Part shown: positions 17,783-41,007 of the stretch, piece by piece
Position numbering within the stretch: position 1 is the stretch's first letter
Layout of the letters: every line of letters begins with the position of its first letter
Assembly: GCA_938004065.1 (NCBI GenBank)
Contig: CALKWM010000013.1
Coordinates: 75,914-139,913 of the forward strand
DNA from: an uncultured bacterium
GTDB taxonomy: Bacteria; Patescibacteriota; JAHJAL01
DNA: 64,000 bases
Direction of reading: 5' to 3'
The notes under the pieces: generated by a model
Told to the model about the DNA's origin: nothing
Seen by the model: only the letters and a program-made list of their open reading frames with translations
Database searches by the model: none
Program-made: the position numbers and the translations under genes

Positions 17783-17854
17783 TCCGGGGTAGCTCAGCGG
17801 TAGAGCAATTGACTGTTAATCAATGGGTCGTGGGTTCGAGCCCCACCCCCGGAG
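17783..17854 (+). tRNA. tRNA-Asn (anticodon GTT)
   Basis: Acceptor TCCGGGG pairs with CCCCGGA. D-arm is gctc-agcggta-gagc. Anticodon stem-loop is attga-CTGTTAA-tcaat. T-arm is gtggg-ttcgagc-cccac. Discriminator is G. Confidence 0.85.
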
Positions 17855-19435
17855 TATTATGGGATTTCGAGCGTATGCATTGAACAACTGTTCTTTGTTT
17901 ACGCTCTTTTTCATAGGTTCTAACATTCTTTTTATTCTATCAACTTCTTTTTTAGCTGGTATGAGAAAAGAGTAAAAGGAAAGAAGCTCTAAAAAGAGCT
18001 TCTGGTCCTTAAGGATAAAATTCGAGCCAAGAGAAATAAAGATTTCTTTTTTGGTTTCAATATCACCTTCATTAAATCTGATATAAGCATATTCGGCTAT
18101 TCCCAAATGTTTTTCGGCAGTTTCTAACCAGCTATTAAGTCTTTTATCAGAATTTTCGATAACTTCATTGATTCTACTTTTTTCTTTTAGGAGATCTGAT
18201 TTTTTGGTGATATATTCTTCTTCATTTAACTCGTTATTCAGGCGTAGCTCTAACAATCGGTCTAATTTTTTAGTACAATCAGTGTAGGCTTTATGCTGTG
18301 AGGCGATGATCAGGTTACGATCATTCGCTTCTTTTTTATTGTGCTTTTTGAGTTCTCCATAGAGATATTCGTGAAAGTCGGGTGGAATTGTAAATGAAGA
18401 TATAATTTCGTTGATCTGCTTTTCCAATTCTTTTACTTCTATACCTTTTTGATAGCATTTTTGCTTTCTGTGTTTTGTGCAGTGGTAGTAAGTATATTGG
18501 TGAATATTACCGTTTTTTTGTTTCTTGATTTTGGTTTCGGCGGTGATAGAGGCTCCACATTCTCCACACTTGATCAAACCAACATAAGCAAAGACTCTAT
18601 TTTTGGGTCTTGGTTTGCCTTCTCTACCTAAAATGAGTTGGATGCGATCATATTCTTCAATAGAGATAATTGCTTCATGCTTGCCTTTAAACCATTCGCC
18701 ACTATTTTTTGGATATTCAAATTCTCCATAATAAAAAGAACTGGTGAATATTCGGTAAATAGTGCTTCGGGAAAATTCCTTTCCTTGGCGGTTTGTTAAT
18801 TTCCATTTACTAAGGGCTATATGTCTAATTTGTGGGGGAGTGTATTTTCCGGTTAGCATAAGATCAAACATTCTACGGACCAACTCGAAACGGTCCGGAT
18901 CTTTGATAATTTCTTTTTCACCTTTCCGTTTAAAGGGATTGTGCATATAGCCAAGTGGGGCGTAGGTTGGAAGCCAACCACGTTTTGCTTTGGTCCGAAG
19001 ACCTCTTCTGGTATCAGTACTTAGGTCCATGATAAATTGATTGGCTACGCCCAATTCTACAGCCATAACGATAACATTATCAGTGGGATAGTAGCTTTGA
19101 CTATGAGTTTGAATATGTTTGATTATTCCTTGTTGAATCAACCAACTAATTTGACCACCGTCAATGGGGTTACGAGCTAATCGATTTAATTTCCAACATA
19201 ATATGCCCTGAGCTTCACCTTTGTTTATTCTTTGAATCATTTCGTTAAATATTTCTCTTCCTGGTGCTTTGGCTGATTTTGATTCAGAAAGAATTTCTAC
19301 AATGCGTATGTTTTTTTGTTCAGCAATTTTGGTTAATTCCTGAATCTGTGAATCAATTGAAGCCATTTGTCGATCTTCGTTTTCGGTTGATTTGCGAGCA
19401 TAAAGGAAATATTTTAGTCTTTGATCGTTTTTCAT
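17816..19435 (-). CDS. Large serine recombinase (integrase type); its 3' end overlaps the tRNA-Asn 3' end
   Basis: N-terminal resolvase catalytic domain YARKSTENEDRQMASIDSQ. Recombinase domain and a Cys-rich zinc ribbon (CGECGAS...YYHCTKH). 539 aa. Confidence 0.8.
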   Translation of the reverse strand: MKNDQRLKYFLYARKSTENEDRQMASIDSQIQELTKIAEQKNIRIVEILSESKSAKAPGREIFNEMIQRINKGEAQGILCWKLNRLARNPIDGGQISWLIQQGIIKHIQTHSQSYYPTDNVIVMAVELGVANQFIMDLSTDTRRGLRTKAKRGWLPTYAPLGYMHNPFKRKGEKEIIKDPDRFELVRRMFDLMLTGKYTPPQIRHIALSKWKLTNRQGKEFSRSTIYRIFTSSFYYGEFEYPKNSGEWFKGKHEAIISIEEYDRIQLILGREGKPRPKNRVFAYVGLIKCGECGASITAETKIKKQKNGNIHQYTYYHCTKHRKQKCYQKGIEVKELEKQINEIISSFTIPPDFHEYLYGELKKHNKKEANDRNLIIASQHKAYTDCTKKLDRLLELRLNNELNEEEYITKKSDLLKEKSRINEVIENSDKRLNSWLETAEKHLGIAEYAYIRFNEGDIETKKEIFISLGSNFILKDQKLFLELLSFYSFLIPAKKEVDRIKRMLEPMKKSVNKEQLFNAYARNPIILRGWGSNPRPID

Positions 19436-19611
19436 AGTAATAGAGATTAATGGATAAACTAATAGGACGGTTCTGGTTGACCCAACTTACCACTAATGGT
19501 TTGTCGGCAGAACCGCCCTGTTTAGGCGACAAAAATTCATTAGTGTAAAAAATTGTTGGGTCAACACTTATATTATAAAATATTTTAAGGTGCATAAAAA
19601 TCATTTTTTTG

Positions 19612-19947
19612 TCATGGAGGGTTTGTTTCGATCATGCCTTTATATCTTGATTTGTAGTATTTGATTTTAAGGCATTTAATACATCCGATTTTTTTGTTTA
19701 TAGTGTCGATGTAGATTATTCGGATTCTGCGATGGCAATTTGGGCAGGAAAACCAGTATCGTTGGCCATTAAACCTTGTTTTTGATATGGATAATTTAAT
19801 CGTTAAATCTTGAATAGAAACTTTTGATCGTATAAATTCTGATTTGGCAATCTGGTGGTAGTTTTTGATGATATTATCGATGTCAATTTTTTGATAATTC
19901 AAGTTTGTTAGATTTTTTCCTAAATCGTATGGCTTTATTGAATTCAT
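19612..19947 (-). CDS. Small zinc-ribbon protein (CxxC...CxxC), hypothetical
   Basis: FSCPNCHRR...GCIKCLK. Extremely AT-rich gene. Confidence 0.4.
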   Translation of the reverse strand: MNSIKPYDLGKNLTNLNYQKIDIDNIIKNYHQIAKSEFIRSKVSIQDLTIKLSISKTRFNGQRYWFSCPNCHRRIRIIYIDTINKKIGCIKCLKIKYYKSRYKGMIETNPP

Positions 19948-19952
19948 GTTTT

Positions 19953-20549
19953 TTAATTATTGTTAATAAATTCTTGTTTTTCTGATACAAAAGCATTTTT
20001 ACTTTGAATCTTGATATCAATAGATGGTGATTTGATTTGTTGGAGTAGAGATAGGGATGAATTAAATTGTCTATTGGCTCGATCAATTTCTTTACTAATT
20101 AGATAGCAGTATTGAATGCTTAATTTATTTACTGATTCTGAGCTAGAGCATTGACTGAGGATCCTTGAATATTGAATAATTTTTGTGTATGAGAGAGCAA
20201 TATTATTAGCCATGGCTTTTTCAATTGAGGTTGTGCATTGGTATTCTTTTATTATGTCTCGTGCGAATTGTATTGCCATTGGTCGGTATTCTTTTTTATG
20301 ACAAAAAGCTACAGTGTAACCTGTGTCTAAACCGAAGATATTAGAGAAATCATGAAATAATTCATCAATCTGTTTTTTCTTACTTTTTTTGCCAAGGTAA
20401 TGTTTTTTAAGAAGGATACCAATTTGATCTAATAAAACATCTGGATCGTGGTTTGTTTTGATTTTGTCTTTGACGAAATTTTTTATGTCTTCTGTGGTTT
20501 CCAATTGTTCAATTTGTTTTCTTTCAATTGGCTTAAGATTGTTTCGCAT
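19953..20549 (-). CDS. Hypothetical protein of the AT-rich element
   Basis: 198-aa ORF. Tightly packed with neighbours on the same strand. Confidence 0.4.
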   Translation of the reverse strand: MRNNLKPIERKQIEQLETTEDIKNFVKDKIKTNHDPDVLLDQIGILLKKHYLGKKSKKKQIDELFHDFSNIFGLDTGYTVAFCHKKEYRPMAIQFARDIIKEYQCTTSIEKAMANNIALSYTKIIQYSRILSQCSSSESVNKLSIQYCYLISKEIDRANRQFNSSLSLLQQIKSPSIDIKIQSKNAFVSEKQEFINNN

Positions 20550-20599
20550 AGTATTTAATTAATTATTAATAAATAAATAGATTTACCCCACACCCAATC

Positions 20600-21808
20600 T
20601 CACAAGTTAAGATTTGGGAATATTAATATTTTTTGTTGATTGTCTGGACCGTAATCTTGGACGATCAATCCCGCATTTTCCAACATAGGTAAAATTTCTT
20701 GTCTTAGTTTGTATTCAGGTAGAGGGTATTGGTAGGTTTGAAAGAATCTTTTCAAAATCTCTGGTCTACTTATTCCAATTCTTATATCTGGATAGTTTGA
20801 TATTTTTTCTTTATACAGAGGGAGAATAATTTCATTGAAAATACTATAAAGGTAGGGAGAGATATTTAATTCTTGGCTGACCGATATTTTGGACCATAGA
20901 TCATGGGCATAATTAATATCTTCTTCGTTGGCATATATGTTATTACCAACTTTTTTTCTAAACCAGAGATTAAGCAGGCTATAACATTTGACTAATGAAA
21001 TGAATCTTCCAATATCTCTTTGGTCGCGTGGTCTTAGTTTCTTTTTGGAGTCGAAAAATAATTTTTCTATTAAGTCGGGTTGTTCGATAATAATATTTTC
21101 TATTTTGGCTGATTTGATAGCCTCGATCCGATCAATAAGTGTTTGTCTTTCAGGATTATTTTGAATATTATTTTCATAAACTTCTTTGTTTGCTTCTTTG
21201 GTAATTTTAGTTTGTATTGACTCTTTTAATTTGTCTTGATTGGTGTCAGGTGAGAGCATGAGAAATCTTGTACTTTCCTGTTCGTCAATCTTGATACTTG
21301 CGCTACAGAAAATAACTGATGGGTAACCAATAATTATTGCTGTTTTAGTGCGGTGACCTCCTTTTTCTTTACGATCAGTTATCTTATTTATTAGTTCTTT
21401 TTTGTCATGAGAAAGTAATGGCCGGAATTTTTCGAGTAGATAATGATCTGGTTGGTCTAAAAAGATAATTATTTTTCTCGATAGGTTGATAATAGTTGTG
21501 TTGGTTTTTTGGTTGTATTCTCCTTGTTCATGAAAGAATGATGTTGGAGAACATGATCCAAGTATTAGTAAATCTTCTTTAGGGAAATAATTTGAGATTT
21601 CTAAGGGGATGTAACTTTTACCCGCTGATGAGGGGGCATTGAAACTAATATTGAATTGAGAATCATTTGTATATGCCGATAAACAACATAAAAATGTTGC
21701 TAGTTTATTGTGATTGTCTTTTTTGACCGTTAGGTCTAGAATTTTGATTATTTCCTCAGGAGTAATTGGATTGAAATTTTTATTAATAGAAATATTATTT
21801 TCTTTCAT
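20600..21808 (-). CDS. P-loop NTPase, possibly a primase/helicase-like replication protein of a mobile element
   Basis: Walker A motif NAPSSAGKSY and a Walker B-like IIFLDQPD. Sits adjacent to the recombinase. Confidence 0.45.
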   Translation of the reverse strand: MKENNISINKNFNPITPEEIIKILDLTVKKDNHNKLATFLCCLSAYTNDSQFNISFNAPSSAGKSYIPLEISNYFPKEDLLILGSCSPTSFFHEQGEYNQKTNTTIINLSRKIIIFLDQPDHYLLEKFRPLLSHDKKELINKITDRKEKGGHRTKTAIIIGYPSVIFCSASIKIDEQESTRFLMLSPDTNQDKLKESIQTKITKEANKEVYENNIQNNPERQTLIDRIEAIKSAKIENIIIEQPDLIEKLFFDSKKKLRPRDQRDIGRFISLVKCYSLLNLWFRKKVGNNIYANEEDINYAHDLWSKISVSQELNISPYLYSIFNEIILPLYKEKISNYPDIRIGISRPEILKRFFQTYQYPLPEYKLRQEILPMLENAGLIVQDYGPDNQQKILIFPNLNL

Positions 21809-21998
21809 GGTGATTTTGATTAATATATTTGGATAATTTTTTTTCTTCTGATGGAGTTAGGGGCTTGGAATAAACTACATAATACAAATTGAGAAATTTT
21901 TGATATTGGTCATAGGCCTCCTTATCACTTAAATCTTGATTAAAGTGTTTCTTTACCATTTGTTTAAACTTCTCAATTGTTTCTTTGCTGATAATCAT
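21795..21998 (-). CDS. Small hypothetical protein
   Basis: 67-aa ORF overlapping the upstream gene stop, as expected for an operon. Confidence 0.3.
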   Translation of the reverse strand: MIISKETIEKFKQMVKKHFNQDLSDKEAYDQYQKFLNLYYVVYSKPLTPSEEKKLSKYINQNHHERK

Positions 21999-22235
21999 TT
22001 ATGAGTGGTAAATCCTTGTCTTAAGCAGTTTTTGATTATATGCAAATAGAATTGGATCGACCTTGGCTTGGTGACTGAAATATAATTCGATAAGTCTATC
22101 GAGGTTGTCGTCGCGTATGATATAGAAGACGGTTGTGTTATCTTTGTTTTTTTCGGTGCTAGAAATACAGTATCCAGATGAAATAATGAACGAACAAAGA
22201 TTGAGATCTGATGATTTAAAATAGTTATTTTGCAT
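21999..22235 (-). CDS. Small hypothetical protein
   Basis: 78-aa ORF directly abutting the neighbouring gene. Confidence 0.3.
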   Translation of the reverse strand: MQNNYFKSSDLNLCSFIISSGYCISSTEKNKDNTTVFYIIRDDNLDRLIELYFSHQAKVDPILFAYNQKLLKTRIYHS

Positions 22236-22393
22236 AATTGTTTTATTAATAGTAATTTTTTTCCAGTTGCTATTTTTCAGAATAGAGTAAATATGAGATT
22301 CCCTGTATTGGTCCTCGTGAAAATTTGAATAATAAAAAAATATGGTTAGAAAACCATATTTTAAAAAGTTATTAACACCTATTTGAAGGACTG

Positions 22394-23515
22394 TTACTTC
22401 TTGATTATTTCGTATTTAACATAATTTAGGACATATCCATGACCTTTTTTCTTGTTTATCAAATTATGTCTAACATTTAAATATTTTATAAATCTTTTGT
22501 TTATCTTTTTTATGGCTTTGTTTATGGATGATATTCCAGATTTGTATTGAATTTTAGAATTTAATTCTGTACTGGATATTGGGTTTTTATTAAGTAGTAA
22601 AACAATTTTTTTGCAATTATTTTTTATAGGATATATGAATTTGCGGTTGAAAATTTCCTTATATATGCCGTATTTTTTGCTAATATGAATAGTTGTTTTC
22701 CCATTGTTGTCGTTTTGTTCACATATCAAGTTTTGATATGTGTCGTTATTAATAAGTTGGTCAATTATGTGTAAGTGGAGTCTGTGCACATCGGAATATA
22801 TTTCGTCAATATTGTATGAATCAGAATAGTCTATTTTGCCGGATATTAAACATTTTATTTCATTACTCATCAGTTTGTATTCCACATATTGATTGGTTAA
22901 ATATGTTTTATCAATTAATTTTTCTAATTTTTTAGATTCATAAATTATTAGATAAATATTTATGAGATTATTAAGACTAGCCCATAATTTGGTGATGCTT
23001 TCTGTTTCGTAGTTATTTTTTGTTGTTAAATAGTTTCGAAATGTATCTTCGTATTTAAATTTTTTTTCTTGTTTCTTTCTATTGTGTTTTTGATTAAGAA
23101 AAAATTTATTTACCAATTTTGAATATGGTGATTTGCCAATCTTGAATATAATTTCTTTTATGGTTTCGTAATTATATTTGGTGTTAATTATTGAAGGAGT
23201 GAATTCTCTTGCTGGGGGAAATAGTAATTCAGAATATTCGGTATTTGTTGTAATGAAATTGAGACTATTACTATTGTTTGTAATAATTGTTTGAAGCTTC
23301 TTAATTATTTTATTTGTAGTATTATTTATTTTATTCTGTTTGTTGGTTAAATTGTTGTAAGCATTTCGGCTTTCTTTTATTTTTTTGTTAAGTATTTCTT
23401 TGGTTATTGTGTTGTCATTTATAAATTTTATATAGTCTGCAACATTGATGAAGAATATTTTTGGGTCTTGTGAAATTAAATTAAAATTTTGATTAATTGA
23501 ATCGATTAAATTCAT
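22394..23515 (-). CDS. Hypothetical Asn/Lys/Ile-rich protein (373 aa) of the AT-rich element
   Basis: Long ORF in a segment of roughly 25% GC. No motif recognised. Confidence 0.45.
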   Translation of the reverse strand: MNLIDSINQNFNLISQDPKIFFINVADYIKFINDNTITKEILNKKIKESRNAYNNLTNKQNKINNTTNKIIKKLQTIITNNSNSLNFITTNTEYSELLFPPAREFTPSIINTKYNYETIKEIIFKIGKSPYSKLVNKFFLNQKHNRKKQEKKFKYEDTFRNYLTTKNNYETESITKLWASLNNLINIYLIIYESKKLEKLIDKTYLTNQYVEYKLMSNEIKCLISGKIDYSDSYNIDEIYSDVHRLHLHIIDQLINNDTYQNLICEQNDNNGKTTIHISKKYGIYKEIFNRKFIYPIKNNCKKIVLLLNKNPISSTELNSKIQYKSGISSINKAIKKINKRFIKYLNVRHNLINKKKGHGYVLNYVKYEIIKK

Positions 23516-23922
23516 ATAAATTGTAATAGAAATATAATATTTAAACTGTTTTTATGTTAGTTTAATTGTATTATCTTATCAAATAAAGACTGACTAGATT
23601 TGAATTTTGGTGATAAAAAAGATTATCATTAATGTGGTTAGTCATATTACTGAATAGTTAACCGTATAATTTAGAGCCTAAACCTTATAAAGTAATATTT
23701 TTAAGGCATGGCGAAAAAACCTTATGCATAAAGATGGTTCTTCTGACCAGCTTACTTGCATAAGGTCTATATCCGAAAGGGTATAGGGTGATCTCGAAAG
23801 AGAAAGCCGAGTTGTGTTAGAAGAGCCTTTTTTGTATTTTGAAAGAAAATTTATTTAGGATGGACAAAGTAATTATAAATTTGGTGTAATTCTTTATTTA
23901 AATAAATTATTGGGTAATTATT

Positions 23923-24672
23923 ATGGACAAAGAAAAAGAAGGTGAGCAAATAGTTTCGGTCAAATCGTCTAATTTTGGTTGCCTTACTGTTTTTATTTGG
24001 TTCGTAGGATTTATGTGTTTATTTTGGGGGTTAATAATAATTTCGAATTTTTCGATTGTTAATTTTGTTTCTGGTGTTTTGTTGGTAATCGCAGGTTTAA
24101 TTATGTTTCCACCTGTGAGAAATATGATTGAGAAAAAAACAGGAATAAAATTATCCAATGCTTTGTCTTGTGTGTTAGTTTTTATTCTTTTTGTAATAGG
24201 AATTGTGCTTGGTTCTTCATTTAGACAGATAAACAGTAATTTGGATAATAAGTCAGATAATAAACAAGAAACAATCAAGACAATAAATATGGAGAAGTTG
24301 GTCGGTTTTGATTTGCGGAACAAACAACCTATTGGGGATGAGAATATTTATACATATAATCCAGTAAAGAATAATGATTATTCTATTGCTGTTTTAACGA
24401 GTAAAACAGCTAGCAATATTCATGAAGATAGCTATTTATTGGAAAAAAATAGTAAAGATATTAATGGAATAAATGTTGAAGTTGGGTATAAAGATTTTTC
24501 AGAAAAGGATGGTGTAGTACTTACAAGAAAATATGAAGGTCTTGCTTTTGATTTTGAGTATAATAATCGATTTTACTCTGGGGAAGTTTCTAATTTAAAA
24601 GGTGAATCAGTAAAAGAGAAATTGGATGAAATTTTAGTTAATTTTCTGCAATCAGTCCAGGGTAAATCTTAA
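23923..24672 (+). CDS. Membrane protein with N-terminal TM helices and a C-terminal soluble domain
   Basis: Two or three hydrophobic helices in the first roughly 100 aa. Confidence 0.45.
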   Translation: MDKEKEGEQIVSVKSSNFGCLTVFIWFVGFMCLFWGLIIISNFSIVNFVSGVLLVIAGLIMFPPVRNMIEKKTGIKLSNALSCVLVFILFVIGIVLGSSFRQINSNLDNKSDNKQETIKTINMEKLVGFDLRNKQPIGDENIYTYNPVKNNDYSIAVLTSKTASNIHEDSYLLEKNSKDINGINVEVGYKDFSEKDGVVLTRKYEGLAFDFEYNNRFYSGEVSNLKGESVKEKLDEILVNFLQSVQGKS

Positions 24673-24752
24673 TAGTGATCAATTGTTTTTTATTTCGTGA
24701 ATTAAAAGTTTACAATGTAATTGTGGTTGAGTATTACTATTAATATTTATAT

Positions 24753-25574
24753 ATGACTATTCCAAAGAGAGTTTTTGATCGAATGACTAAAATGTTGGCG
24801 AAATATCAACAGGTTTTGAGAATTGCCAAAGATAGGGATGTGAATGAGTCTGATACGGTAATGATTATCAAGGATATTTTGGCTGATGTTTTGGGCTATG
24901 ATAAATATTTAGAAGTAACTAGTGAGTTTGCCATTAGGGGGACGTTTTGTGATGTGGCGGTCAAAATTGATAGCAAGATTGAGTTTTTATTGGAAGCTAA
25001 GGCAATTGGTTTGGAATTAAAAGAGAATCATTTAAGACAAGCTCTTGATTATGGAGCTAATAATGGCGTACAGTGGGTTGTTTTGTCGAATGGGATCGTC
25101 TGGAACATATACAAGATAAAATTTGAAAAACCGATTGGATATGATTTTGTTTGTTCTTTGAATATGTTGGAGCTTGATCCAAAGAGCGAACAAGATATTG
25201 AGAAGCTTTTCATTTTATGCAAAGAGGGAATAGTAAAGGATGCAAGAGAGGAATATTTTGAAAAAAGGCAAAGCGTAAATCGTTTTGTTTTAGGCGAATT
25301 GCTTTTAAGGGAAAATGTTCTTTTTGAGATTAGAAAGCAATTAAGAAAAATGTCTGAAGGAGTGCCGGTTGATATAGATGATATTCAAAAGGTTTTGAAG
25401 AATGAAGTTATTAAGAGGGATGTGCTTGAAGGAGATGAGGCTAAAAAAGCACGGGACAGGATAAATAAGTTTTATCGTAAACAGGCTAAAAAGAATGAAA
25501 AGAAGATTGAGGTTGTAAATAAAGAGAAATTAGATTCTTCTAATGTTTCAATAGATGAAGCTAATATTGGATAA
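24753..25574 (+). CDS. PD-(D/E)xK restriction-endonuclease-like protein (type I HsdR N-terminal-like domain)
   Basis: ESDTVMIIKDILADVLGYD...CDVAVKIDSKIEFLLEAKAIG...QALDYGANNGVQWVVLSNGIVWNIY matches the HsdR_N-type nuclease-fold pattern (D...E-x-K). Confidence 0.6.
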   Translation: MTIPKRVFDRMTKMLAKYQQVLRIAKDRDVNESDTVMIIKDILADVLGYDKYLEVTSEFAIRGTFCDVAVKIDSKIEFLLEAKAIGLELKENHLRQALDYGANNGVQWVVLSNGIVWNIYKIKFEKPIGYDFVCSLNMLELDPKSEQDIEKLFILCKEGIVKDAREEYFEKRQSVNRFVLGELLLRENVLFEIRKQLRKMSEGVPVDIDDIQKVLKNEVIKRDVLEGDEAKKARDRINKFYRKQAKKNEKKIEVVNKEKLDSSNVSIDEANIG

Positions 25575-25604
25575 CTGAGATGATTTATTTATAAATATAA
25601 ATTT

Positions 25605-26624
25605 ATGTATTACGATAAAAAGCCTTATATCTCTTTGCTAAATGAAATTAAAAATGGTGGTGTTGAGGCAATTAAAGATTTAGTTGCAAGAAAAGAGTCA
25701 GAAGGATATTTTCTTGATTTCAAAAGAACATCTATAGGTGATTATAGTAACAAAAAATCACTTGAGGATAGTGATAGAAATAACTATGCAAGATCGATAT
25801 CTGGTTTTGGAAATTCTGAAGGTGGAATAATTATATGGGGAGTAGGAACTGGGAAAGATGAGGATGTGGCTAAAGATTTATTACCAATAAAATCAGTCAG
25901 TAATTTCGTGTCCATATTAAATTCGCAAGTTAGTAGATTGACGGTCCCTCAGCATCCATCTGTTAATAGTTTTACTATAATTGATAATGAGCAAGGGGAA
26001 GATTGTGGTTATGTTGTTACTGAAGTGCCTAAGTATGAAGGATTGCCAATACAAGTTATTTTTGATTATAAGTATTATATGCGAGCGGGAGAATCATTTG
26101 TTCCTATTACTCATTCAGTATTGGCTGGTATGTTTGGACGTAAGCCCGCTCCAAATGTGGGTATAAATTATATTACTAGGGAAGGGGATCCAAAGTTGGA
26201 GGATGGATTTATAAAATTTTCAGTTGGCATACAATTAGTTAATCTTGGGATGGGAATTGCTAGAGATATTTTTCTAAATAATATGATCTTTACTCCAAAA
26301 GGTAATTCAAAGATTGAAAAAGAATATAGTGATAAGAATTTTGTTGGATATGAAGTATTCGGCGTAGGTGATAATTTAATTTCGGTTAATCATTTAAGGT
26401 TGGCTCCAGAGCAAAGAGTTCAACCCTTAACTTTATTTTTTAGTTTAAAAGAACCTTTTGAAAGTGGAATAAATTGGGATTTGCTGGTGGGTGCTGATTC
26501 ACAAATGCCTCACAAAATGGAAATATTTCACACAAAAGAGAAATTAATTGAGATGTGTAATAAATACATATCTGACTCAAATTATCCGTTTAGAGAAAAT
26601 TTTGTAAGAGGAAAAAATGAATAA
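25605..26624 (+). CDS. AlbA_2 (Schlafen-like putative DNA-binding) domain protein
   Basis: ESEGYFLDFKR...ARSISGFGNSEGGIIIWGVGTGKDEDV matches the AlbA_2 core (EFK ... AfaNteGG.liiGV.D). Confidence 0.55.
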   Translation: MYYDKKPYISLLNEIKNGGVEAIKDLVARKESEGYFLDFKRTSIGDYSNKKSLEDSDRNNYARSISGFGNSEGGIIIWGVGTGKDEDVAKDLLPIKSVSNFVSILNSQVSRLTVPQHPSVNSFTIIDNEQGEDCGYVVTEVPKYEGLPIQVIFDYKYYMRAGESFVPITHSVLAGMFGRKPAPNVGINYITREGDPKLEDGFIKFSVGIQLVNLGMGIARDIFLNNMIFTPKGNSKIEKEYSDKNFVGYEVFGVGDNLISVNHLRLAPEQRVQPLTLFFSLKEPFESGINWDLLVGADSQMPHKMEIFHTKEKLIEMCNKYISDSNYPFRENFVRGKNE

Positions 26625-27111
26625 TTTCGATAAACTATCTAGAAGGGCCGAGGAATTAGATAGAATGTCCCAAAGTGGTATTTCTGATAGATTAACTTTG
26701 GAGGAGGCGAGTAATATTGTTAATATTTGGGGAGTTTTTTTAGAGTATTCTGGGGTGATTGGAATACTTTTTTGTAATAATATTCCTGAGTCTTTATTGC
26801 CATATCCTAAACATATTTTGGTTGGAGCAATTAATAAAATGGCTGAATATTATCATGATCAAGGACTAAGCGATAAGGTGGGTGTTTTAGAGTCTACTTT
26901 GATCGGATTGACTGCATACACGAATGATATAGAGGCAGTAAATGAGAGTCTAAAACAATTTCAAAATGAAAAATGGAGGGAGGCATTTATTCCAGGTCTA
27001 AAAAGATTTCAAAGAAATCAAATGGAGAATGGTTATTTGGTTGATAAAAAACTTTGGAAGTTTGGTAAATCTCGATTAGAAGAGATAAATGAATTTTTAG
27101 AATGGGATTAG
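26617..27111 (+). CDS. Hypothetical protein, translationally coupled to the upstream gene
   Basis: Its start overlaps the upstream stop by 8 nt. 164 aa. Confidence 0.45.
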   Translation: MNNFDKLSRRAEELDRMSQSGISDRLTLEEASNIVNIWGVFLEYSGVIGILFCNNIPESLLPYPKHILVGAINKMAEYYHDQGLSDKVGVLESTLIGLTAYTNDIEAVNESLKQFQNEKWREAFIPGLKRFQRNQMENGYLVDKKLWKFGKSRLEEINEFLEWD

Positions 27112-27114
27112 TAG

Positions 27115-27618
27115 ATGACAATTAGAAAAGTTCGGGATTATTTTTTTAAGCTATATATGAAGATTGCTTCAAAAAAAGAAGAGAGAGGATTAAATGAAAA
27201 TAACAGAAACTTAATTGTTGTCTTTGTTTTTATTGTTTTGTTGTTATTTGGTCCGATTGAATCATATGGATTATTTGTGCGAATTATGTATCTAATTTTA
27301 GTTCCTGTGTTTCTTTGGTTGATTTTAAGGTTTTGGGGCGGTAAGTTGCCCTTAGATAAGCAATTAAACAATTATTTAAATCGAGGGATATATGCTTTAA
27401 TTGCTGGCATGTTGATTGTGAGTGCATATATTTCCTTTATAACGAAAAATCATACCGTATGCGACCAACTCGTGCAAACACGAGATGGACAAGAATGTGT
27501 TGGGGATTATGTATTGGTAAATGGTCCAGATGTAGTTGGTGTCGTTATGCAGATAATATTTGCTGGTATATTATTCTGGCTAGCAGTTTCGAAAAGAAAG
27601 GATGGCGAAGATATTTAG
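27115..27618 (+). CDS. Small multi-TM membrane protein
   Basis: Three or four hydrophobic helices. Starts 4 nt after the previous stop. Confidence 0.45.
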   Translation: MTIRKVRDYFFKLYMKIASKKEERGLNENNRNLIVVFVFIVLLLFGPIESYGLFVRIMYLILVPVFLWLILRFWGGKLPLDKQLNNYLNRGIYALIAGMLIVSAYISFITKNHTVCDQLVQTRDGQECVGDYVLVNGPDVVGVVMQIIFAGILFWLAVSKRKDGEDI

Positions 27619-27669
27619 CGAGCAATAATATAGGATGATTGTTAGTGACTACAAAACAGGTTTGATTTT

Positions 27670-28311
27670 GTGAATTTCATTGTGTTTATCAGTAAAATAA
27701 TTTATATGCCAAAGTCTAGAGGAGAATATTCGGAAGATATTGAAAGTCAATATAGAAGACTTGAGAGAGTATATAATAAGTTAACTCAAGATTTTAACAA
27801 AGAAAGTTTATCAAAAAGTTCTCAAGAGATTCTTGATTCTGTGATTGAATTTATGACCGTTTGTTATCACTTGCGTGAATTGATAAAAAAAGACCGAAAG
27901 GTTAACAATGTTATTAAGAATAAGTTGCCATTATTTACAGATGTAGATAATAACATTGACCCTACTGATTCAAAAATTGGTTTATTAATTTGTCGTGATT
28001 TGTGTAACAAGTCTAAACATGGATCATTAGACAAAAAGTGGAGACCAAATGATGAGCATACAAAGATTAATATAACTGGTGGGTCGCTGTTTTCAGTTTC
28101 AGTAGAAGAATTAAAAGCCGCTAATAAAGAAAAAATGACTATTCATCTTAAGGAAGGTGATAGTATTTATATAGGAAATTTTACGGTTTTTTTTCGAGGA
28201 AAAAATTATAATTTACTTGGTGTGGTGGATTCATGTATGCATTTTTGGAAAAAATTTTTTGAAGAAAATAATCTTCTTATGCCGAGATATACATTGCGAA
28301 ATAACTTGTGA
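27670..28311 (+). CDS. Hypothetical protein
   Basis: 213-aa ORF. Its stop codon lies inside box 1 of repeat family B. Confidence 0.45.
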   Translation: MNFIVFISKIIYMPKSRGEYSEDIESQYRRLERVYNKLTQDFNKESLSKSSQEILDSVIEFMTVCYHLRELIKKDRKVNNVIKNKLPLFTDVDNNIDPTDSKIGLLICRDLCNKSKHGSLDKKWRPNDEHTKINITGGSLFSVSVEELKAANKEKMTIHLKEGDSIYIGNFTVFFRGKNYNLLGVVDSCMHFWKKFFEENNLLMPRYTLRNNL

Positions 28312-28412
28312 GTAAGGGAGGGGGGTAACTAAATTGTAATCAGTTAATTGGTTTTAGTTTTGAGTATTGCGCGGAGTTTTTCTTAAAAACACAGTTTATG
28401 ACTGTGTTTTTA
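28306..28412 (+). repeat. Repeat family B copy 1 (box 1 over the stop codon, box 2, then a terminator hairpin)
   Basis: Box 1 is gtgagtaagggaggggggtaactaaattgtaat. Box 2 is ttgcgcggagtttt. The terminator is aaaaacacagtttatgactgtgttttt. Confidence 0.6.
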
Positions 28413-28485
28413 TTAATTAGAATTTAATACTATTATTGTATAATAACGTTTGGAACTTAGATTGTATATTTTCTGTTAATAAAAT

Positions 28486-29244
28486 ATGGCGATGAAAATG
28501 TTTGAAAAAGCGATAAAAAATTTTATTCCTTATATGATAGCTATTCTTGTAGGGATAGTTTTTTGTTACTTGTTAATTAGTCTTGGTGGTAGTTTGTCGA
28601 GTGTATTTATTGAAATCTCTGTTTTTTTGTTAATATTGTTCATCTGTTATGTGATTTTTTTATTTGTAGATGAAAAAGAGAGTAATTATATTATGACTCT
28701 CGAAGAAGGCAGAGATATTGCAAATAATAATTTAGAAAAGGACCAAATTTTGTCTTTATTGTGTAGTTATGGGTCCCAAAGAGTTGGTCAAGATCAGGTT
28801 GTTTGGAATATGTTTGGTGCTTTTTGGGCTACAAATGCATTGTTATTGGTTAGTGTTTTTTCTGCTGATGAAGTATGGGATAAAAAATATGTTTGGTTAG
28901 TTGTGTCATTAATTGGTTTTATGGTCTCGGTGGCTTGGTTTTTAGTTCAGGATAGAATGTTGAATAGAATTGCTAGATATGAAATTTCAATTAAGTTTAT
29001 AGAAAAAACGTTAGTTTTTCCAAAACCATTGAGAACATATTCAAATTCTCCTCTAAGGTCCTTGATTGATGTAAGGGCTAGAAATGTTATGCGTTTGGTT
29101 GTTTTTTTGATCGGTGTGACTTGGTTGATAAAAGCCTTACTTGTATATGTACCTTCAATATTTATTATTGTAATTAAGTTTTTTGTTTGGATTGTTGCAG
29201 TGTTAGTATGGGTTATTGCATATTTGCTAAGTATTTTGTATTAG
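28486..29244 (+). CDS. Polytopic membrane protein, hypothetical
   Basis: Six or more hydrophobic helices. Confidence 0.5.
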   Translation: MAMKMFEKAIKNFIPYMIAILVGIVFCYLLISLGGSLSSVFIEISVFLLILFICYVIFLFVDEKESNYIMTLEEGRDIANNNLEKDQILSLLCSYGSQRVGQDQVVWNMFGAFWATNALLLVSVFSADEVWDKKYVWLVVSLIGFMVSVAWFLVQDRMLNRIARYEISIKFIEKTLVFPKPLRTYSNSPLRSLIDVRARNVMRLVVFLIGVTWLIKALLVYVPSIFIIVIKFFVWIVAVLVWVIAYLLSILY

Positions 29245-29312
29245 TAAAGTGGTTCTAACATCGTGTATTGCGCGGAGTTTTGTTTTGAAAGCACAGTTTA
29301 TGACTGTGTTTT
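29243..29312 (+). repeat. Repeat family B copy 2 (box 2 plus terminator hairpin, box 1 degenerate)
   Basis: Box 2 is gttctaacatcgtgtattgcgcggagtttt. The hairpin is the same aaagcacagtttatgactgtgttttt as in copy 1. Confidence 0.55.
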
Positions 29313-29381
29313 TGTTGTTTTTGTATTGAATTGAGATATATTAGTGATATGATTAACTTACTAGTTGGTTAATATGATTTT

Positions 29382-29969
29382 ATGAAAAATAATAATGCTA
29401 AATCAGGTATAATACAGAACACAAAAGAGTTAATAATAAAGAAGGCTTCCGAATTGTTTGCTGATAGCGGTTATCTTGGTGTTTCTATGGAGGATATTGC
29501 CAAGCAACTTAGTATTACAAAAGCCGCTTTGTATTATCATTTTACTGGAAAGGAAGAGTTGTATTCTTCGGTATTGGATGATGTATATTTATCGATGAAT
29601 AAGAAGATAGAAGCAATAAATTTAAAACAAGATTCAACGAAAATTCTGGAGGATTATATTAAGGTTTATATTGATTTTACGATGAAGGAAAAGACATTAT
29701 TGAAAATTTTGTTGCCTAGGGTGATGATGGAAAATGAGGAAATTAGAAAGAAAATTCTTAGTATTCGTAATTTATTCTTGGAAAAAGTTAAGTTTCACTT
29801 AAAAGAGATTGGTAGACAGAAATATCAAAAAGATAAAAAAATGTTGGAGGATGATTCCTTGATGATTATGTATTTTGTTGAAGGATTGCTGTTTGACAAT
29901 TTGATGATAAATAATAAGATTAATTCTTCTAAAATATCTAAGATAATCGTGGCGAAAATAGCAGATTAA
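29382..29969 (+). CDS. TetR-family transcriptional regulator
   Basis: HTH GVSMEDIAKQLSITKAALYYHF. Confidence 0.75.
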   Translation: MKNNNAKSGIIQNTKELIIKKASELFADSGYLGVSMEDIAKQLSITKAALYYHFTGKEELYSSVLDDVYLSMNKKIEAINLKQDSTKILEDYIKVYIDFTMKEKTLLKILLPRVMMENEEIRKKILSIRNLFLEKVKFHLKEIGRQKYQKDKKMLEDDSLMIMYFVEGLLFDNLMINNKINSSKISKIIVAKIAD

Positions 29970-30631
29970 TTGAAAATTATGTCTTTGAGATGATTGATTG
30001 TTTGCTTTGAATAGATAATAGAAATATGTCCCAGAACATTAATTTGTATGTTTTGGGTATTTTTTAATTGGCTAGAAATACTTGGAACTATCTCATCATA
30101 TTTTGATCTGAGGTTAATAATTTTTGGTCTGAATTTATTTTGTGATAATTTTTTCAGAAATTTGCTATTAAGAACGAGTTGATCGGCGGGAATAAATTGT
30201 TGTGGAGGTAATATATTGGCTAGAGGACTGCCATGAATAGGCGAAGCTATTGTGATAACTTTTTTTATTGTTTTTGGATATTTTTTTTCGTAGTTTAGGG
30301 CAATTATTCCACCTAGACTATGGCCGATTAGAATGATGTTTTTGAGTTGATGTTTTTTGATATATTGATTCAGTTTGTCGGTTGTTTTTTCTATGTCTTC
30401 GATATACCATCCAAGATTGGGTATATGAATATTGTGGTTTGATTTATTGAGTTTTTTGAGAAAAGGATAGTAGAGTGGGTGTTGGGTAAACCAGCCGTGA
30501 AGAAAGATGATATTTTTACGGTTAATTGGAGAGGAAATAATTGTTTCTGGCAAAAATATTTGAAATAAGCCGGAAGGAATATAGAGAAAAATGAGGATTA
30601 TTTCGCTGACAATATTGATGATGGTAAGCAT
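29966..30631 (-). CDS. Alpha/beta hydrolase (lipase/esterase-like)
   Basis: GxSxG nucleophile elbow GHSLGG. An N-terminal TM anchor is present. Confidence 0.65.
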   Translation of the reverse strand: MLTIINIVSEIILIFLYIPSGLFQIFLPETIISSPINRKNIIFLHGWFTQHPLYYPFLKKLNKSNHNIHIPNLGWYIEDIEKTTDKLNQYIKKHQLKNIILIGHSLGGIIALNYEKKYPKTIKKVITIASPIHGSPLANILPPQQFIPADQLVLNSKFLKKLSQNKFRPKIINLRSKYDEIVPSISSQLKNTQNIQINVLGHISIIYSKQTINHLKDIIFN

Positions 30632-30816
30632 ATTGTAATGATTATAAATAATGAAAAGCTCCCTAAAAAATATTCAGGGAGCGTGAATTTATTTTATTTT
30701 TATAATGAACTCGCTAATCAATGTCGTTGATTTACTGAGTCCAAGAAAATATATGTATATATTAGCGGCAAGATATCCTAGCCAATAAAGAATGTTTATA
30801 ATTGCTTTTATTTTTA

Positions 30817-31359
30817 TCATTGTTTTTTCTCCTTTCTGGGAAGTAGCAGGGGTAATCCCAATAGGGAATAACCGAAAGACATGATAATGATCAAAAATTG
30901 AATCGCTGTATTTTGCTGGAGGCTGAATAATCCAATATAGATTATTATCATGTATGGATGTGCCATATGCAGAAATATGCCGCTATAAATGAATGTGGCT
31001 ATGATTGATAGTTTATGATTTTTACTACCTCCGCAAAAATCATAAACTTTTCTGGTTATCGAGTGTGTTACTGGATTCCAGGTGGCCCAGAAGGCCTGAT
31101 AGGCACTAGGGATATCTCTTTTTTTTAGAAATCTATGAATGAGTTTTGTGTTTAGGAATTTCTTATTGCTATTTTTTTCTATTTCTAGAAAATATTCTGA
31201 TAAAAAATTGTTGTTGGTAAAGGTCTTAATAGAAAAAGAAAAGCAGTAGACATAATACGAAAAAGTTAATAGAATTATTTTCTTTAGTTCAACTAACTTC
31301 TTGTATTGTTCTAGGCATATTATTCTTTGTTTTGTAATTGACAGAAAATATGCTTGCAT
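30817..31359 (-). CDS. Hypothetical membrane protein
   Basis: Several hydrophobic helices. 180 aa. Confidence 0.4.
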   Translation of the reverse strand: MQAYFLSITKQRIICLEQYKKLVELKKIILLTFSYYVYCFSFSIKTFTNNNFLSEYFLEIEKNSNKKFLNTKLIHRFLKKRDIPSAYQAFWATWNPVTHSITRKVYDFCGGSKNHKLSIIATFIYSGIFLHMAHPYMIIIYIGLFSLQQNTAIQFLIIIMSFGYSLLGLPLLLPRKEKKQ

Positions 31360-31480
31360 TATTCATCCTCCTTTAACTGTACCCGACTTGGTACTTGATT
31401 TTTTCCATTTTTCTATTACAATTGTATTATACTAACCGAACGGTAAGTAAGTCAAGTATTATTTTTAAATTGATTGTTGT

Positions 31481-32716
31481 GTGATGAAGGAACTAGTAAA
31501 CAATTTGCGAATTTCTCTATTTTTGGCCTATAGGGGAATTGTGCGTGGTAATATTGGAACTATCTTAATGACGATAATGATGATGGTGTTGGCTTTTTTA
31601 AATTTGGTGTTTTTATCATCTATTTTTACTGGAATATCAAAGGCGATAGATAGTCAAGCTATAAATATGATGTATGGCAATATATTAATAAAGCCAGGCA
31701 AGGATGATTTTTATATTAAGGATGTGGCCAATAAGATAAGGTTGATTTCTGGTTTGCCAGGGGTAGTTGGAGCGTCTAGTCATTATGTGGATAGTTTATA
31801 TATAGAATTTGATCCTGAGCAGGATGGTTTGGATGTAAAGTCGGGAAATTGGATAACGAAAGCAGTTAATATAAATGAAGATCGACTAGTATCGAATGTA
31901 TCCGATTATATTGTGGAAGGAAGGTTTTTGGATGAAAATAGTCGTGATGAGATTGTTTTAGGCAGAGACGTTGCTGGCACTCATGGAACGGATAAATATA
32001 ATTCTTCTTTGAAAGGTGTGAAGGTGGGCGATAAAGTTTATGCCACTTTTTCCAATGGAATTCGGAGGGAGTATAGGGTAGTTGGAATATTTATGTCAAA
32101 GTCTTTGTTTGCGGATAGCATGATATATATTTCCAAAAACGAATATCAATCTGCTTATCGTGTGAACGGTGTGGCTAATGAGATTGCGGTGAAATTGGAT
32201 CAGGATAATTTGGAAGAAAAATATATAAAAATTATTAAGTCATTGGGTATTGATGATGTGGATATTAAATCATGGAGAGAAGTTAATGAGTTGGGAGGGG
32301 GTATCACCAATAGTTTTACGATGATTAAAGGTATGCTGTCAGCGATTGGTATGCTAGTGGCCGCAGTAACGATATTTATTATTATTTTTGTGAGTGTGGT
32401 GAATCGGCGGAAACAGATTGGAATCATGAAAGCGATTGGTATGCAGGAAGAAATAATTATTATTTCATATATTTGGCAGTCTTTGTTTTATGCTTTGTGT
32501 GGAGTGGTATTCGGTTTGATTATTATGTACAAAGCAATAATTCCGATATTTGTTACTTATCCGCTTGATTTTCCTGTCGGATATGTGAGTTTGGTGTTAA
32601 GTAATAATGATTTATGGACGGCTAGTATTGGTCTTATAGCATCAGCTTTTATAGGTGGGTTAATTCCGTCATTAATGGGAGTAAAAGAGTCAATTTTAAA
32701 ATTAATTTGGGGCTAA
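31481..32716 (+). CDS. ABC transporter permease, FtsX/MacB-like
   Basis: N-terminal TM helix, a roughly 230-aa extracytoplasmic domain and three C-terminal TM helices. Overlaps the downstream ATPase gene. Confidence 0.65.
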   Translation: MMKELVNNLRISLFLAYRGIVRGNIGTILMTIMMMVLAFLNLVFLSSIFTGISKAIDSQAINMMYGNILIKPGKDDFYIKDVANKIRLISGLPGVVGASSHYVDSLYIEFDPEQDGLDVKSGNWITKAVNINEDRLVSNVSDYIVEGRFLDENSRDEIVLGRDVAGTHGTDKYNSSLKGVKVGDKVYATFSNGIRREYRVVGIFMSKSLFADSMIYISKNEYQSAYRVNGVANEIAVKLDQDNLEEKYIKIIKSLGIDDVDIKSWREVNELGGGITNSFTMIKGMLSAIGMLVAAVTIFIIIFVSVVNRRKQIGIMKAIGMQEEIIIISYIWQSLFYALCGVVFGLIIMYKAIIPIFVTYPLDFPVGYVSLVLSNNDLWTASIGLIASAFIGGLIPSLMGVKESILKLIWG

Positions 32717-33387
32717 TTATGATTAATGTGATTGATTTACATAAAACATATATGGGGAAAGTGCCAACAACGGTTTTAAGGGGAATAAATATCGAAGTTG
32801 GTAAGGGTGAGTTTGTAGCAATTATGGGAAAGAGTGGTTCTGGAAAGTCGACTTTGTTACACCAACTTGGTTTATTTGATGTGCCGACTAAAGGAGAAAT
32901 TTTTTATGATGGCGAGCTGGTATCTGATTTGTCGGAGCGAGAAAAGAATAATTTTCGTTTGCATAAATTGGGTTATGTGTTTCAGGAATATGCCTTATTG
33001 CCGGAGTTGAACGTAATTGAGTCGGTGTATTTGCCATTAAAAATGCAAAGCATTGATCAAGATGATTATATATTACGGTCCAAGGAAGCTTTGGATAAAG
33101 TTGGTTTGGCGCATAGAATGAATCATATGCCTAACGAATTATCCGGTGGGGAACAACAGAGGGTGGCTATTGCCCGAGCGATTGTAGGTAGACCAAAGAT
33201 TTTGTTTGCTGATGAACCTTGTGCCAATCTTGATTCAGAATCTTCTGAAATGGTGGTTGATTTATTTCGAAAATTGAATAAGGAATTGGGACAAACTATT
33301 GTGATGGTGACGCACGAACCTGATGATACCAAAAAGGTTGATAGGGTGATTAGATTAAAGAATGGTGTAGTAACTAATGAAGAATAA
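32707..33387 (+). CDS. ABC transporter ATP-binding protein (MacB/LolD-type)
   Basis: Walker A GKSGSGKST, signature LSGGEQQRVAIARA, Walker B ILFADEP. Confidence 0.85.
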   Translation: MGLIMINVIDLHKTYMGKVPTTVLRGINIEVGKGEFVAIMGKSGSGKSTLLHQLGLFDVPTKGEIFYDGELVSDLSEREKNNFRLHKLGYVFQEYALLPELNVIESVYLPLKMQSIDQDDYILRSKEALDKVGLAHRMNHMPNELSGGEQQRVAIARAIVGRPKILFADEPCANLDSESSEMVVDLFRKLNKELGQTIVMVTHEPDDTKKVDRVIRLKNGVVTNEE

Positions 33388-38571: not shown

Positions 38572-38594
38572 TTATGCTCTTTTCCGTGACTTGA

Positions 38595-41005: not shown

Positions 41006-41007
41006 TT

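Follow-up and report, generated by a model that had tools for sequence, protein, structure and literature searches.

The 64-kb stretch of DNA analysed here, called the window below, belongs to a Patescibacteria (candidate phyla radiation, CPR) metagenome-assembled genome (MAG) and carries, at its tRNA-Asn gene, a real and recently mobile element that is now delimited. We are confident that this integrative element, about 11.4 kb long (17856-29272), is plasmid-like and not viral, that a large serine recombinase (LSR) drives it and that it belongs to a family widespread in Patescibacteria. It is by sequence comparison that the junctions, the empty site, the horizontal transfer, the splitting of the recombinase gene and the family-wide tie to tRNA 3′ ends and to the LOOT RNA were established. 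The loci used for comparison (L028 to L176) are DNA stretches of related genomes and metagenome contigs, amounting to 2.49 Mb altogether. The recombinase family set came from a scan of metagenomes in which the aligned recombinases of the window and L028 served as query (at least 80 loci, at 42-58% identity), and the counts over 80 loci given for this family are among the matches listed. Host relatives were located through RpoD; the first RpoD scan, on genome contigs, returned 80 loci, mostly from unrelated phyla, among them L028 and some distant empty sites. Exact look-ups of the LSR and RpoD proteins gave the same six contigs for both, with no empty allele at 100% identity.

The tRNA-Asn(GTT) gene, at 17783-17854 on the plus strand (ARAGORN; Rfam, 71.9 bits), is intact and entirely host-derived. 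On the minus strand, a 539-aa open reading frame (ORF, length as integrated) occupies 17816..19435. The initial annotation had taken it for an LSR gene ending inside the 3′ end of the tRNA, and both statements are borne out. The three Pfam domains of such enzymes are found (Resolvase PF00239, 1.6e-18, residues 10-153; Recombinase PF07508, 5.6e-11; Zn_ribbon_recom PF13408, 3.9e-09), and the order of resolvase domain, recombinase domain and zinc beta-ribbon fits the predicted protein to the LSR class. Moreover, the catalytic domain has a YARKS(16)T motif with the serine nucleophile and the protein matches PHROG 'integrase' at 1.5e-66. Its sequence matches in PDB include the TP901-1 and conjugative-transposon recombinase catalytic domains, together with the A118 integrase structures 4kis and 6dnw, which match residues 230-351 (recombinase and zinc-ribbon region). 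Homologues form 663 clusters at E ≤ 1e-150. The last 12 codons and the stop are the antisense of the 3′ half of tRNA-Asn: the stop TAA is the complement of the anticodon-loop TTA (17816-17818), and the residues beyond ...NPIILR, that is GWGSNPRPID and the stop, come from the tRNA antisense.

The ends of the element were placed by a four-way comparison of the left and right attachment sites (attL and attR) with the attB sites of two relatives, L166 and L176. The attL core, CGGAGT, is at 17850..17855, with the tRNA (B arm) to its left and the LSR 3′ region (P′ arm) to its right. The attR site of the 11.4-kb element (29236..29319, plus strand) was recognized from its match to the L166 terminator, from the reconstruction of the recombinase tail and from the end of homology with L173, another carrier of the element. 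Three parts make it up: a P arm formed by the antisense of the displaced LSR C terminus (LRAIHDVRTTLLIQNT and a stop), the core CGGAGT at 29273-29278, and a B′ arm formed by the terminator hairpin of tRNA-Asn. The element itself extends over about 17856-29272, the 6-bp core being shared at 17850 and 29273; this core corresponds to tRNA-Asn acceptor positions 69-72, the discriminator G73 and one downstream base. In L166 the empty site reads tRNA-Asn and then directly CGGAGT and a terminator hairpin like that of window 29279-29316 (the L166 terminator matches 28372-28411 at 90% and 29273-29313 at 85%). L176 is a second empty site with the same succession of tRNA-Asn, CGGAGT and terminator.

Between the window and L173, the tRNAs are different in the T arm and identical from CCCCCGGAG on into the element, and the homology between the two loci ends at 29322. 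Because of this junction comparison, the crossover is placed in the last bases of the tRNA and not in the T loop. The attL and attR sites of the window share just 6 bp, which is compatible with the short att sites of serine integrases; in L088 the core is CGGAGC, and the exchange probably takes place at GG or GA, which fits both cores. A model with crossover in the T loop, which took a 16-nt tRNA repeat of L088/L028 as attR, was dropped, as the true attR of L088 is an orphan LSR tail followed by CGGAGC, 174 nt nearer the element. Outside this true attR, L088 (1141-1330, equal to L028 beyond its end) carries a further 16-nt tRNA-Asn 3′ fragment, GAATCCCACCCCCGGA, which is followed by a terminator of its own; an earlier event at this tRNA, with a crossover further inside the gene, probably left it as a scar.

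The absence of a clear direct repeat of the tRNA 3′ end, reported in the initial annotation, is correct: no displaced tRNA-Asn 3′ fragment was found in the 64-kb window with up to 3 mismatches in 16-20 nt, and only the 5-6-bp core recurs, because the shared core is only 6 bp long and the crossover lies at the last tRNA bases. The best tRNA 12-mers, at 46497 and 44950, are inside genes and at chance level. In place of the Islander signature (an intact tRNA plus a displaced tRNA 3′ fragment), the distal end carries the tRNA terminator and a recombinase-gene fragment. The far boundary had been described as not identifiable by eye; it was indeed missed that way but is now located at the attR core. 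Likewise, the extent first proposed, 17783-24700, lies in the element but covers only its left 60%.

The right end also contains a piece of the recombinase gene. The reverse complement of 29236-29277, in the LSR frame, encodes the P-arm peptide and its stop; the joined reading is ...NPII-LR-AIHDVRTTLLIQNT and a stop, and the native tail supplied by attR starts LRAIHDVRT. This tail aligns column for column with the L.D[DN][IV]RT C termini of homologues that do not adjoin a tRNA, for example LRLLDDIRTYCL, LHGLDDVRTCLQ and WVKDVRTCLLTI, the last read up to its stop. In the 120 closest homologue clusters, about 46 tails are of the tRNA-antisense type (..LLRGxDSNxRP..), many others end at the T arm, and about 20 are native L.D[DN][IV]RT tails. 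One native-tail homologue has no adjacent tRNA and lies on a phage-like contig that also encodes Rad52, RuvC and a CI-like repressor; we read this as the free attP state. Furthermore, orphan native tails are present in 9 further loci, on the LSR strand and 6.8-11.2 kb upstream of the LSR, each after a terminator hairpin and CTCCGC (10 forward-strand matches in this search versus 2 reverse-strand control matches). As the antisense of the repeat that the initial annotation had named 'repeat B' restores the native LSR C terminus of the family, attP is, from these sequences, within the recombinase ORF. In L103, two orphan native LSR tails (at 2744 and 4735; LRLLDDVRTCLMLDRI and LRLLNDVRNCCSCW, each with its stop) stand upstream of a single LSR, and this looks like a second attR array on an unrelated metagenome contig.

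In this scheme, the LSR recombines attP, at the 3′ end of its own gene, with attB, made of the last tRNA bases and the terminator. Integration keeps the tRNA whole and splits the recombinase gene: the LSR body at attL reads into the tRNA antisense and gains a substitute 10-aa tail, whereas the 14 or so native last codons (AIHDVRTTLLIQNT) are found 11.4 kb away, in antisense at attR. Recombination of attL with attR would excise the element and restore the full-length gene with its native tail. The predicted attP, reconstructed from the window ends, contains GTGTATTGCGCGGAGTATTATGGGATT, with the junction GTTCTAACATCGTGTATTGCGCGGAGTATTATGGGATTTCGAG, and the attB predicted to be restored in the window after excision is CCCACCCCCGGAGTTTTGTTTTGAAAGCAC. 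The recombinase is presumably active at present. The free and the integrated LSR differ in their C-terminal tail, which could act as a directionality control. Moreover, the displaced gene tail marks attR, so that natural attB/attP pairs can be read from sequence, and a catalogue of orthogonal LSR-site pairs for genome engineering could be drawn from them.

Several points weigh against this interpretation. The window holds two attR candidates, 28372 and 29273. We found no excised circle or attP junction of the window element, and the 90% LSR cluster consists of two sequences, both integrated. The reconstructed attP and attB show no obvious dyad symmetry by eye, and no relaxase, oriT or packaging gene was found in the element. 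The relatives with an empty site are congeneric and not conspecific with the window host (DnaG 75%). Finally, the attR core of L173 is mutated to TGGATT, and this copy may be immobilised. As to the first point, the right end is the 29273 core and not 28372, a choice based on the L173 comparison and on the better-preserved P arm.

Comparison of the hosts shows that the site is polymorphic and that the element has moved between them. RpoD and DnaG of L166 are 96% and 75% identical to those of the window host, and its tRNA-Asn has no recombinase; neither has that of L176. L165, from another sample, has the same RpoD as L166 and a different LSR antisense tail after the tRNA. With L165 occupied and L166 empty, the site is therefore polymorphic among near-identical hosts. 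Further empty sites are found in L167, L041 and L044. In L173, the host proteins are clearly more distant (RpoD 83%, DnaG 56% identical) than those of the element: LSR 98.7%, a 111-aa protein 98%, a 198-aa protein 99.5% and the nuclease-like cargo 98%. The presence of the same element in the window host and in L173 is, on these identities, strong evidence of horizontal transfer. A polymorphic site (L166/L176 empty, L165/L173 occupied) together with an element history discordant with that of the host is what characterizes a genomic island.

We also considered that the recombinase and its neighbours could be a conserved, domesticated core region by rpoD and tRNA-Asn. Indeed, distant Patescibacteria show the order rpoD, tRNA-Asn, LSR again (L028, L169 and at least 9 metagenome loci). 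However, the five loci with empty sites, an element identity far exceeding host identity, the related LSRs found at other tRNAs and the deviant composition all speak against it, and we regard it as extremely improbable. The comparison of synteny with relatives lacking the insertion, proposed with the initial annotation, thus gave empty sites and horizontal transfer, which goes against a conserved core region.

Some observations on this locus in relatives can be added here. In L176 (11216-11861), tRNA-Asn is split after about 40 nt by an insert of about 565 nt with a 110-aa ORF, probably an intron with a homing-endonuclease-like gene. A 78-aa GIY-YIG ORF lies between rpoD and tRNA-Asn in L165 (11566-11802) and L166 (5854-6090) and is absent from the window. 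In L169 (12953-21416; RpoD about 80-84%), a distant LSR, 28% identical, overlaps the tRNA-Asn 3′ end; after it come HTH_17, SNF2, DUF4391, N6_N4 methylase and Res genes, a cargo of defence-type appearance. Distant LSRs (23-24% identical) are also found just downstream of rpoD in L054 (11954-13345) and L038 (12269-13651), from MAGs labelled Gammaproteobacteria and Bdellovibrionales; no tRNA was detected at these two loci.

The association with tRNA 3′ ends extends to the whole recombinase family. In 39 of the 80 listed loci, a tRNA on the opposite strand overlaps or abuts the LSR 3′ end; the targets are tRNA-Asn (20 loci) and tRNA-His (8 loci), and also the tRNAs for Gln, Ser, Ala, Asp, Glu, Trp, Arg and Lys. 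A tRNA-like gene with a group I intron takes this place at the LSR 3′ end in at least 9 more loci. These introns (Rfam 60-104 bits, minus strand) were seen in L094 (3119-3381), L121, L099, L144, L117, L095, L137, L142 and L146, and ARAGORN misses the tRNAs that contain them. Integration of serine-recombinase elements into tRNA genes is called 'rare' by Ghinet et al. (PMC3218068), where phiRSM1 (tRNA-Ser) and a group of AICEs (integrative and conjugative elements of the actinomycete type) of Mycobacterium (tRNA-Leu) are cited. At the time of the Islander paper, serine integrases were not known to target tRNA genes (PMC4383910), and reviews of integrative and mobilizable elements state that serine-recombinase elements insert within protein-coding genes, with very short flanking repeats (PMC5704250). 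What had been called rare or not known is here systematic in a large family, for many tRNA species and in an uncultivated phylum.

A second feature tied to the family is the LOOT RNA (RF03000). In the window it is at 23675-23808 on the plus strand (Rfam 70.0 bits for a gathering threshold of 46.4, model positions 1-121), at the place where the LSR/replication arm and the cargo arm diverge, and its transcription is directed away from the LSR. Sixteen loci are above the Rfam threshold, including the window, L028 and L173 (69-89 bits), with the same arrangement in the latter two and a corresponding position in 14 other LSR loci, and our own covariance model adds LOOT in L151/L153. Counted from the LSR start, it lies 2.3-6.4 kb upstream and mostly in antisense to the LSR, and it is found in 14 of the 48 loci whose upstream sequence exceeds 4 kb. 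In a control set of rpoD-centred loci, 1.33 Mb in all, LOOT matches occurred only in L028 and L054, both of which carry an LSR; the LOOT-like match of L054 (16508-16626) reaches 39.7 bits with our own model. These positions give LOOT a fixed place within LSR elements. Its Rfam entry says no more than sRNA (small RNA), and our literature search found no discussion of its function or genomic context. It might be an origin-associated or a regulatory RNA, but this is a guess. Its placement in a mobile element makes roles as origin, primer or regulator testable hypotheses.

The attR site of the element is one of a series. Each repeat unit, about 110 nt long, comprises a G-rich box, a P arm (antisense LSR tail), a core and a terminator-like B′ arm, and five copies follow each other in direct orientation in the window, at 28.3, 29.24, 33.6, 40.0 and 43.3 kb. 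Judging from their sequence, 'repeat B' is an attR-type scar of this recombinase family. The first copy, at 28297..28418 on the plus strand (core 28372-28377, antisense LRAILKTKTN and a stop), is decayed and internal; it closes the unit of main element cargo ending at 28.3 kb, and it has a counterpart in L173 at about 15090. The second, intact, closes the unit of p252, a 252-aa protein gene, at 29.24 kb and is the right end of the element. Unit 3 (29382..33715, plus strand) contains TetR, an alpha/beta hydrolase and a 180-aa protein (both on the minus strand) together with an FtsX/ABC transporter. It is closed by an attR-like unit (33608-33715) with its core at 33682-33687 and the antisense reading LRAIHDVRTSLLITI and a stop; the P arm and core of this copy are 98% identical over 42 nt to the 29.24-kb copy. 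Unit 4 (33839..40124, plus strand) is a diversity-generating retroelement (DGR) that comprises two target proteins and a reverse transcriptase along with a template repeat. At its end is an attR-like unit (39982-40124) where a 22-nt hairpin insertion separates the P arm from a core-like TGGAGT (40076-40081). The two target genes, of about 700 aa, share repeats of 136-300 nt, the template repeat is near 38441-38576 and the reverse transcriptase at 39035-39988; the content in guanine and cytosine (GC) of this unit, 0.44-0.49, is above that of the rest of the window. Unit 5 (40232..43417, plus strand), with VTC, DUF4956 and CotH, ends in a diverged attR-like unit (43327-43417; antisense ...DTLVRTALVVTC and a stop, core-like TGGATT at 43412), which is the outermost detectable scar.

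The copies encode different but homologous tails, such as AIHDVRT, AIHEVRTCLMVTV and DTLVRTALVVTC, which points to independent events and not to the duplication of one segment. A hidden Markov model of the repeat unit, run on the 2.49 Mb, matched only downstream of rpoD and tRNA-Asn in this clade and always on the tRNA strand (5 copies in the window, 6 in 10 kb in L167/L168, 3 in L176, 1 in L172 and 1-2 in L173), with none in about 96 kb upstream of tRNA-Asn in the same clade. The L167 and L176 arrays have no LSR in the fetched stretch. No cassette common to the arrays of different genomes was found beyond the element itself, among the few arrays at hand. We also dropped a reading of the repeat units as degenerate halves of tRNAs, a permissive Rfam scan of 28-44 kb giving no tRNA-like signal.

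The units could also be viewed as clade-specific, terminator-associated repeats, their likeness to the LSR C terminus being fortuitous. Each of them does close with a terminator-like hairpin at the 3′ end of an operon, and the Rfam scan was blank within them. However, the LSR frame runs through the core without a break, and the motif agrees with 9 independent native tails. Moreover, the differences between homologous tails and the confinement of the units to the region downstream of rpoD and tRNA-Asn, in the tRNA orientation, do not favour mere terminators, and we give this view very little credit.

A more serious alternative concerns the size of the mobile unit, which could be the whole 25.5-kb composite island (17.86-43.4 kb, DGR included), attL pairing with a distal attR-like unit and the inner units being relics. 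The direct orientation of the five attR-like units, the near identity of the P arm and core at 33682 with the 29273 copy, and the internal unit inside the 11.4-kb element, which shows that distal sites get used, are in line with it. However, L173 shares just 17.8-29.3 kb with the window, GC and GC3 (GC at third codon positions) are at or above the host level from 33.8 kb on, the 40.0-kb scar has the 22-nt insertion and the 43.3-kb scar a mutated core. We therefore hold this larger unit to be unlikely, although it deserves to be kept in mind more than any other alternative, and we retain the 11.4-kb element as the mobile unit. The units at 29.3-43.4 kb may be leftovers or captures from earlier elements, through alternative attR choice, a model that needs canonical LSR reactions only: attL and a distal site would capture neighbouring units, whereas attL and a proximal site would leave units behind.

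One may go further and propose, tentatively and with somewhat more doubt than belief, that the tRNA-Asn locus is an LSR-driven platform for gene accretion, a functional analogue of integrons and of the arrays of staphylococcal cassette chromosomes (SCC). Operon-sized cassettes ending in a P arm, a core and a terminator would move between genomes and stack downstream of the tRNA; the DGR, the ABC transporter, VTC/CotH, Fic, GlmS and APH genes would be examples. The swap of the LSR C terminus and LOOT, as a replication or regulatory RNA, would be the control points of the cassette cycle. The scar-bounded units account for the 'repeat B' of the window and place the DGR and other accessory operons, and they suggest a route by which reduced CPR genomes exchange accessory genes.

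We now turn to the gene content of the element. The minus-strand arm holds the LSR, two co-inherited small proteins and a replication module (NTPase, p67 and DUF5659), and the plus-strand arm is the cargo. Next to the LSR are the 111-aa zinc-ribbon protein (19612..19947, minus strand), tightly linked to it, with LSR-adjacent homologues in 18 of the 80 listed loci, and the 198-aa protein (19953..20549, minus strand), with homologues in L087, L155 and L142. No family match was found for either in Pfam, PHROG or PADLOC. As both are co-inherited with the LSR (98-99.5% identity in L173), they are candidate directionality or accessory factors.

The 402-aa Walker-A NTPase (APSSAGKS; 20600..21808, minus strand) corresponds to the C-terminal, helicase or initiator-like, half of primase-NTPase proteins. 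It is 54% identical to residues 316-709 of a 727-aa Toprim-primase fusion of L136, and its relatives are proteins of 722-778 aa whose N-terminal half is a DnaG-type Toprim primase. These fusions in related elements support the replication flavour that the initial annotation had given to this gene; other relatives have Rep_O-like or Phage_CRI-like replication genes at its position. The NTPase is only 60% identical in L173, versus 92-99.5% for the neighbouring genes, and therefore represents a module swap. The G-rich box of the repeat unit also occurs alone (TGTGAGATTGGGTGTGGGGTAA; 20576..20609, minus strand), at the 3′ end and stop codon of the NTPase gene, and this copy coincides exactly with one edge of the segment swapped between the window and L173. 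The module continues with p67, a 67-aa protein (21795..21998, minus strand) and its commonest small gene (homologues in 37 of the 80 listed loci, about 1.7 kb upstream of the LSR), and with a 78-aa DUF5659 protein (21999..22235, minus strand; Pfam 1.1e-05, homologues in 18 listed loci). The 373-aa protein that follows (22394..23515, minus strand, GC 0.239) stands at a position that is variable in relatives, an unrelated 312-aa gene being there in L173.

The cargo genes (23923..28311, plus strand) encode a 249-aa membrane protein, a 273-aa HSDR_N_2/phrog_17239 nuclease-like protein (phrog_17239 at 7e-84), a 339-aa AlbA_2 protein and proteins of 164, 167 and 213 aa, with GC3 of 0.21-0.32. The last gene of the element is that of the 252-aa membrane protein (28486..29244, plus strand), with a weak 8xMP match and 72% identity in L173. 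The plus-strand genes of the window have no homologue in the 80 listed LSR loci, as expected of variable cargo, and the opposite arm of relatives carries type I or type III restriction-modification genes. Plus-strand cargo with nuclease and AlbA_2 genes, repeat-B units and the DGR had been described at the outset; the nuclease-like and AlbA_2 genes are inside the element, but the DGR unit is beyond attR. The defence flavour suggested for the cargo is at best faint, PADLOC giving no match on the cargo and small genes.

The composition of these genes sets them apart. The co-directional, AT-rich minus-strand block noticed initially is real, with per-gene GC of 0.24-0.33 at 19.6-23.5 kb; element genes overall are at 0.24-0.34, versus 0.386 ± 0.037 for 42 flanking genes, and the low GC runs on into the plus-strand genes to about 29.3 kb. 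The GC windows deviate as well: the element is at 0.306, and all 78 same-size windows outside 17.8-43.4 kb are at 0.351-0.376.

A defective or cryptic prophage that lost its structural genes would be another way to account for this content. The match of the LSR to PHROG 'integrase', that of the 273-aa cargo gene to phrog_17239, and the native-tail homologue on a phage-like contig are in its favour. However, Pfam and PHROG scans of the element genes gave no virion gene (capsid, portal, terminase, tail, lysis), and none was found in L173 or, over spans of 6.8-11.2 kb, in 9 related elements. Furthermore, a compact, conserved architecture of 7-11 kb that includes a replication gene of its own speaks for a small element that is intact and not for decay, and the family is nearly absent from IMG/VR, where the LSR and the NTPase as queries gave either no match or a single one, 35% identical. 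We thus find a prophage origin of this kind improbable, and the plasmid-like element is retained. Relaxase/oriT, type IV secretion and FtsK-like domains were found neither in the element ORFs nor in the conserved gene clusters of the 80 listed loci.

Two further observations concern the window as a whole. GC skew is strongly positive (+0.2 to +0.54 per kb) across nearly all of it and falls to 0.05-0.2 only at 18-23 kb, where the minus-strand genes lie; the coding strand of this genome is therefore very rich in G. A 53-nt inverted repeat (55754-55806 / 63898-63950, 87% complementary, arms 8.1 kb apart) flanks the MetRS and ZnuA region.

How does this element compare with known systems? With the large serine integrases of A118 (LI Int), TP901-1, phiC31 and Bxb1 it has in common the resolvase/recombinase/zinc-ribbon architecture, the short junction identity and a recombinase gene adjoining att. 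Unlike in these systems, the target in the window is the extreme 3′ end of a tRNA and its terminator and not a protein-coding gene, attP is inside the recombinase ORF, so that integration swaps the C-terminal tail, and the elements are plasmid-like, of 7-11 kb, in Patescibacteria.

In SCCmec, the CcrAB/CcrC recombinases act at the 3′ end of rlmH: the LSR insertion spares the gene, tandem units are bounded by direct repeats, and some units are devoid of recombinase (pseudo-SCC). Alternative pairs of sites would allow single or composite excision. The five units of the window and the LSR-free arrays of L167 and L176 fit an SCC-like composite architecture, the analogy being one of architecture only. 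Unlike in SCCmec, the target is a tRNA and not rlmH, there is a single recombinase, and the host belongs to the CPR; each scar of the window is a recombinase ORF fragment with a copy of the tRNA terminator, and alternative site usage is here only deduced. The integrases of SSV1-type archaeal viruses are tyrosine recombinases with attP inside int, whose integration at a tRNA partitions the gene and whose excision restores it. There the gene is cut into two large parts, whereas the LSR of the window loses about 14 C-terminal codons and the tRNA antisense gives it a substitute tail; the integrated LSR copy may stay functional.

The Mycobacterium AICEs (tRNA-Leu) and phiRSM1 (tRNA-Ser), as described in PMC3218068, share with the window element a serine recombinase and a tRNA target. 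The host phylum is another one, however, the window element has no conjugation module and is not a filamentous phage, and the phiRSM1 enzyme is small and resolvase-like. The passages of this source considered here make no mention of a split recombinase gene or an attR array for AICEs or phiRSM1.

Finally, the arrays recall integrons, with units of one or two genes, each followed by a site-like repeat of about 110 nt, in a single orientation by a fixed site (6 units in 10 kb in L167). Unlike integrons, the window has no IntI tyrosine recombinase, no attI, no Pc promoter and no folded single-strand attC. Its repeats resemble double-stranded attR sites of serine recombinases, being made of an antisense LSR tail and a terminator, and are not attC; the only recombinase present in a Pfam scan is the serine recombinase, and the locus is thus not an integron. 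The closest architectural analogies would appear to be the SCCmec composite islands and the SSV1-type partition of the integrase gene.

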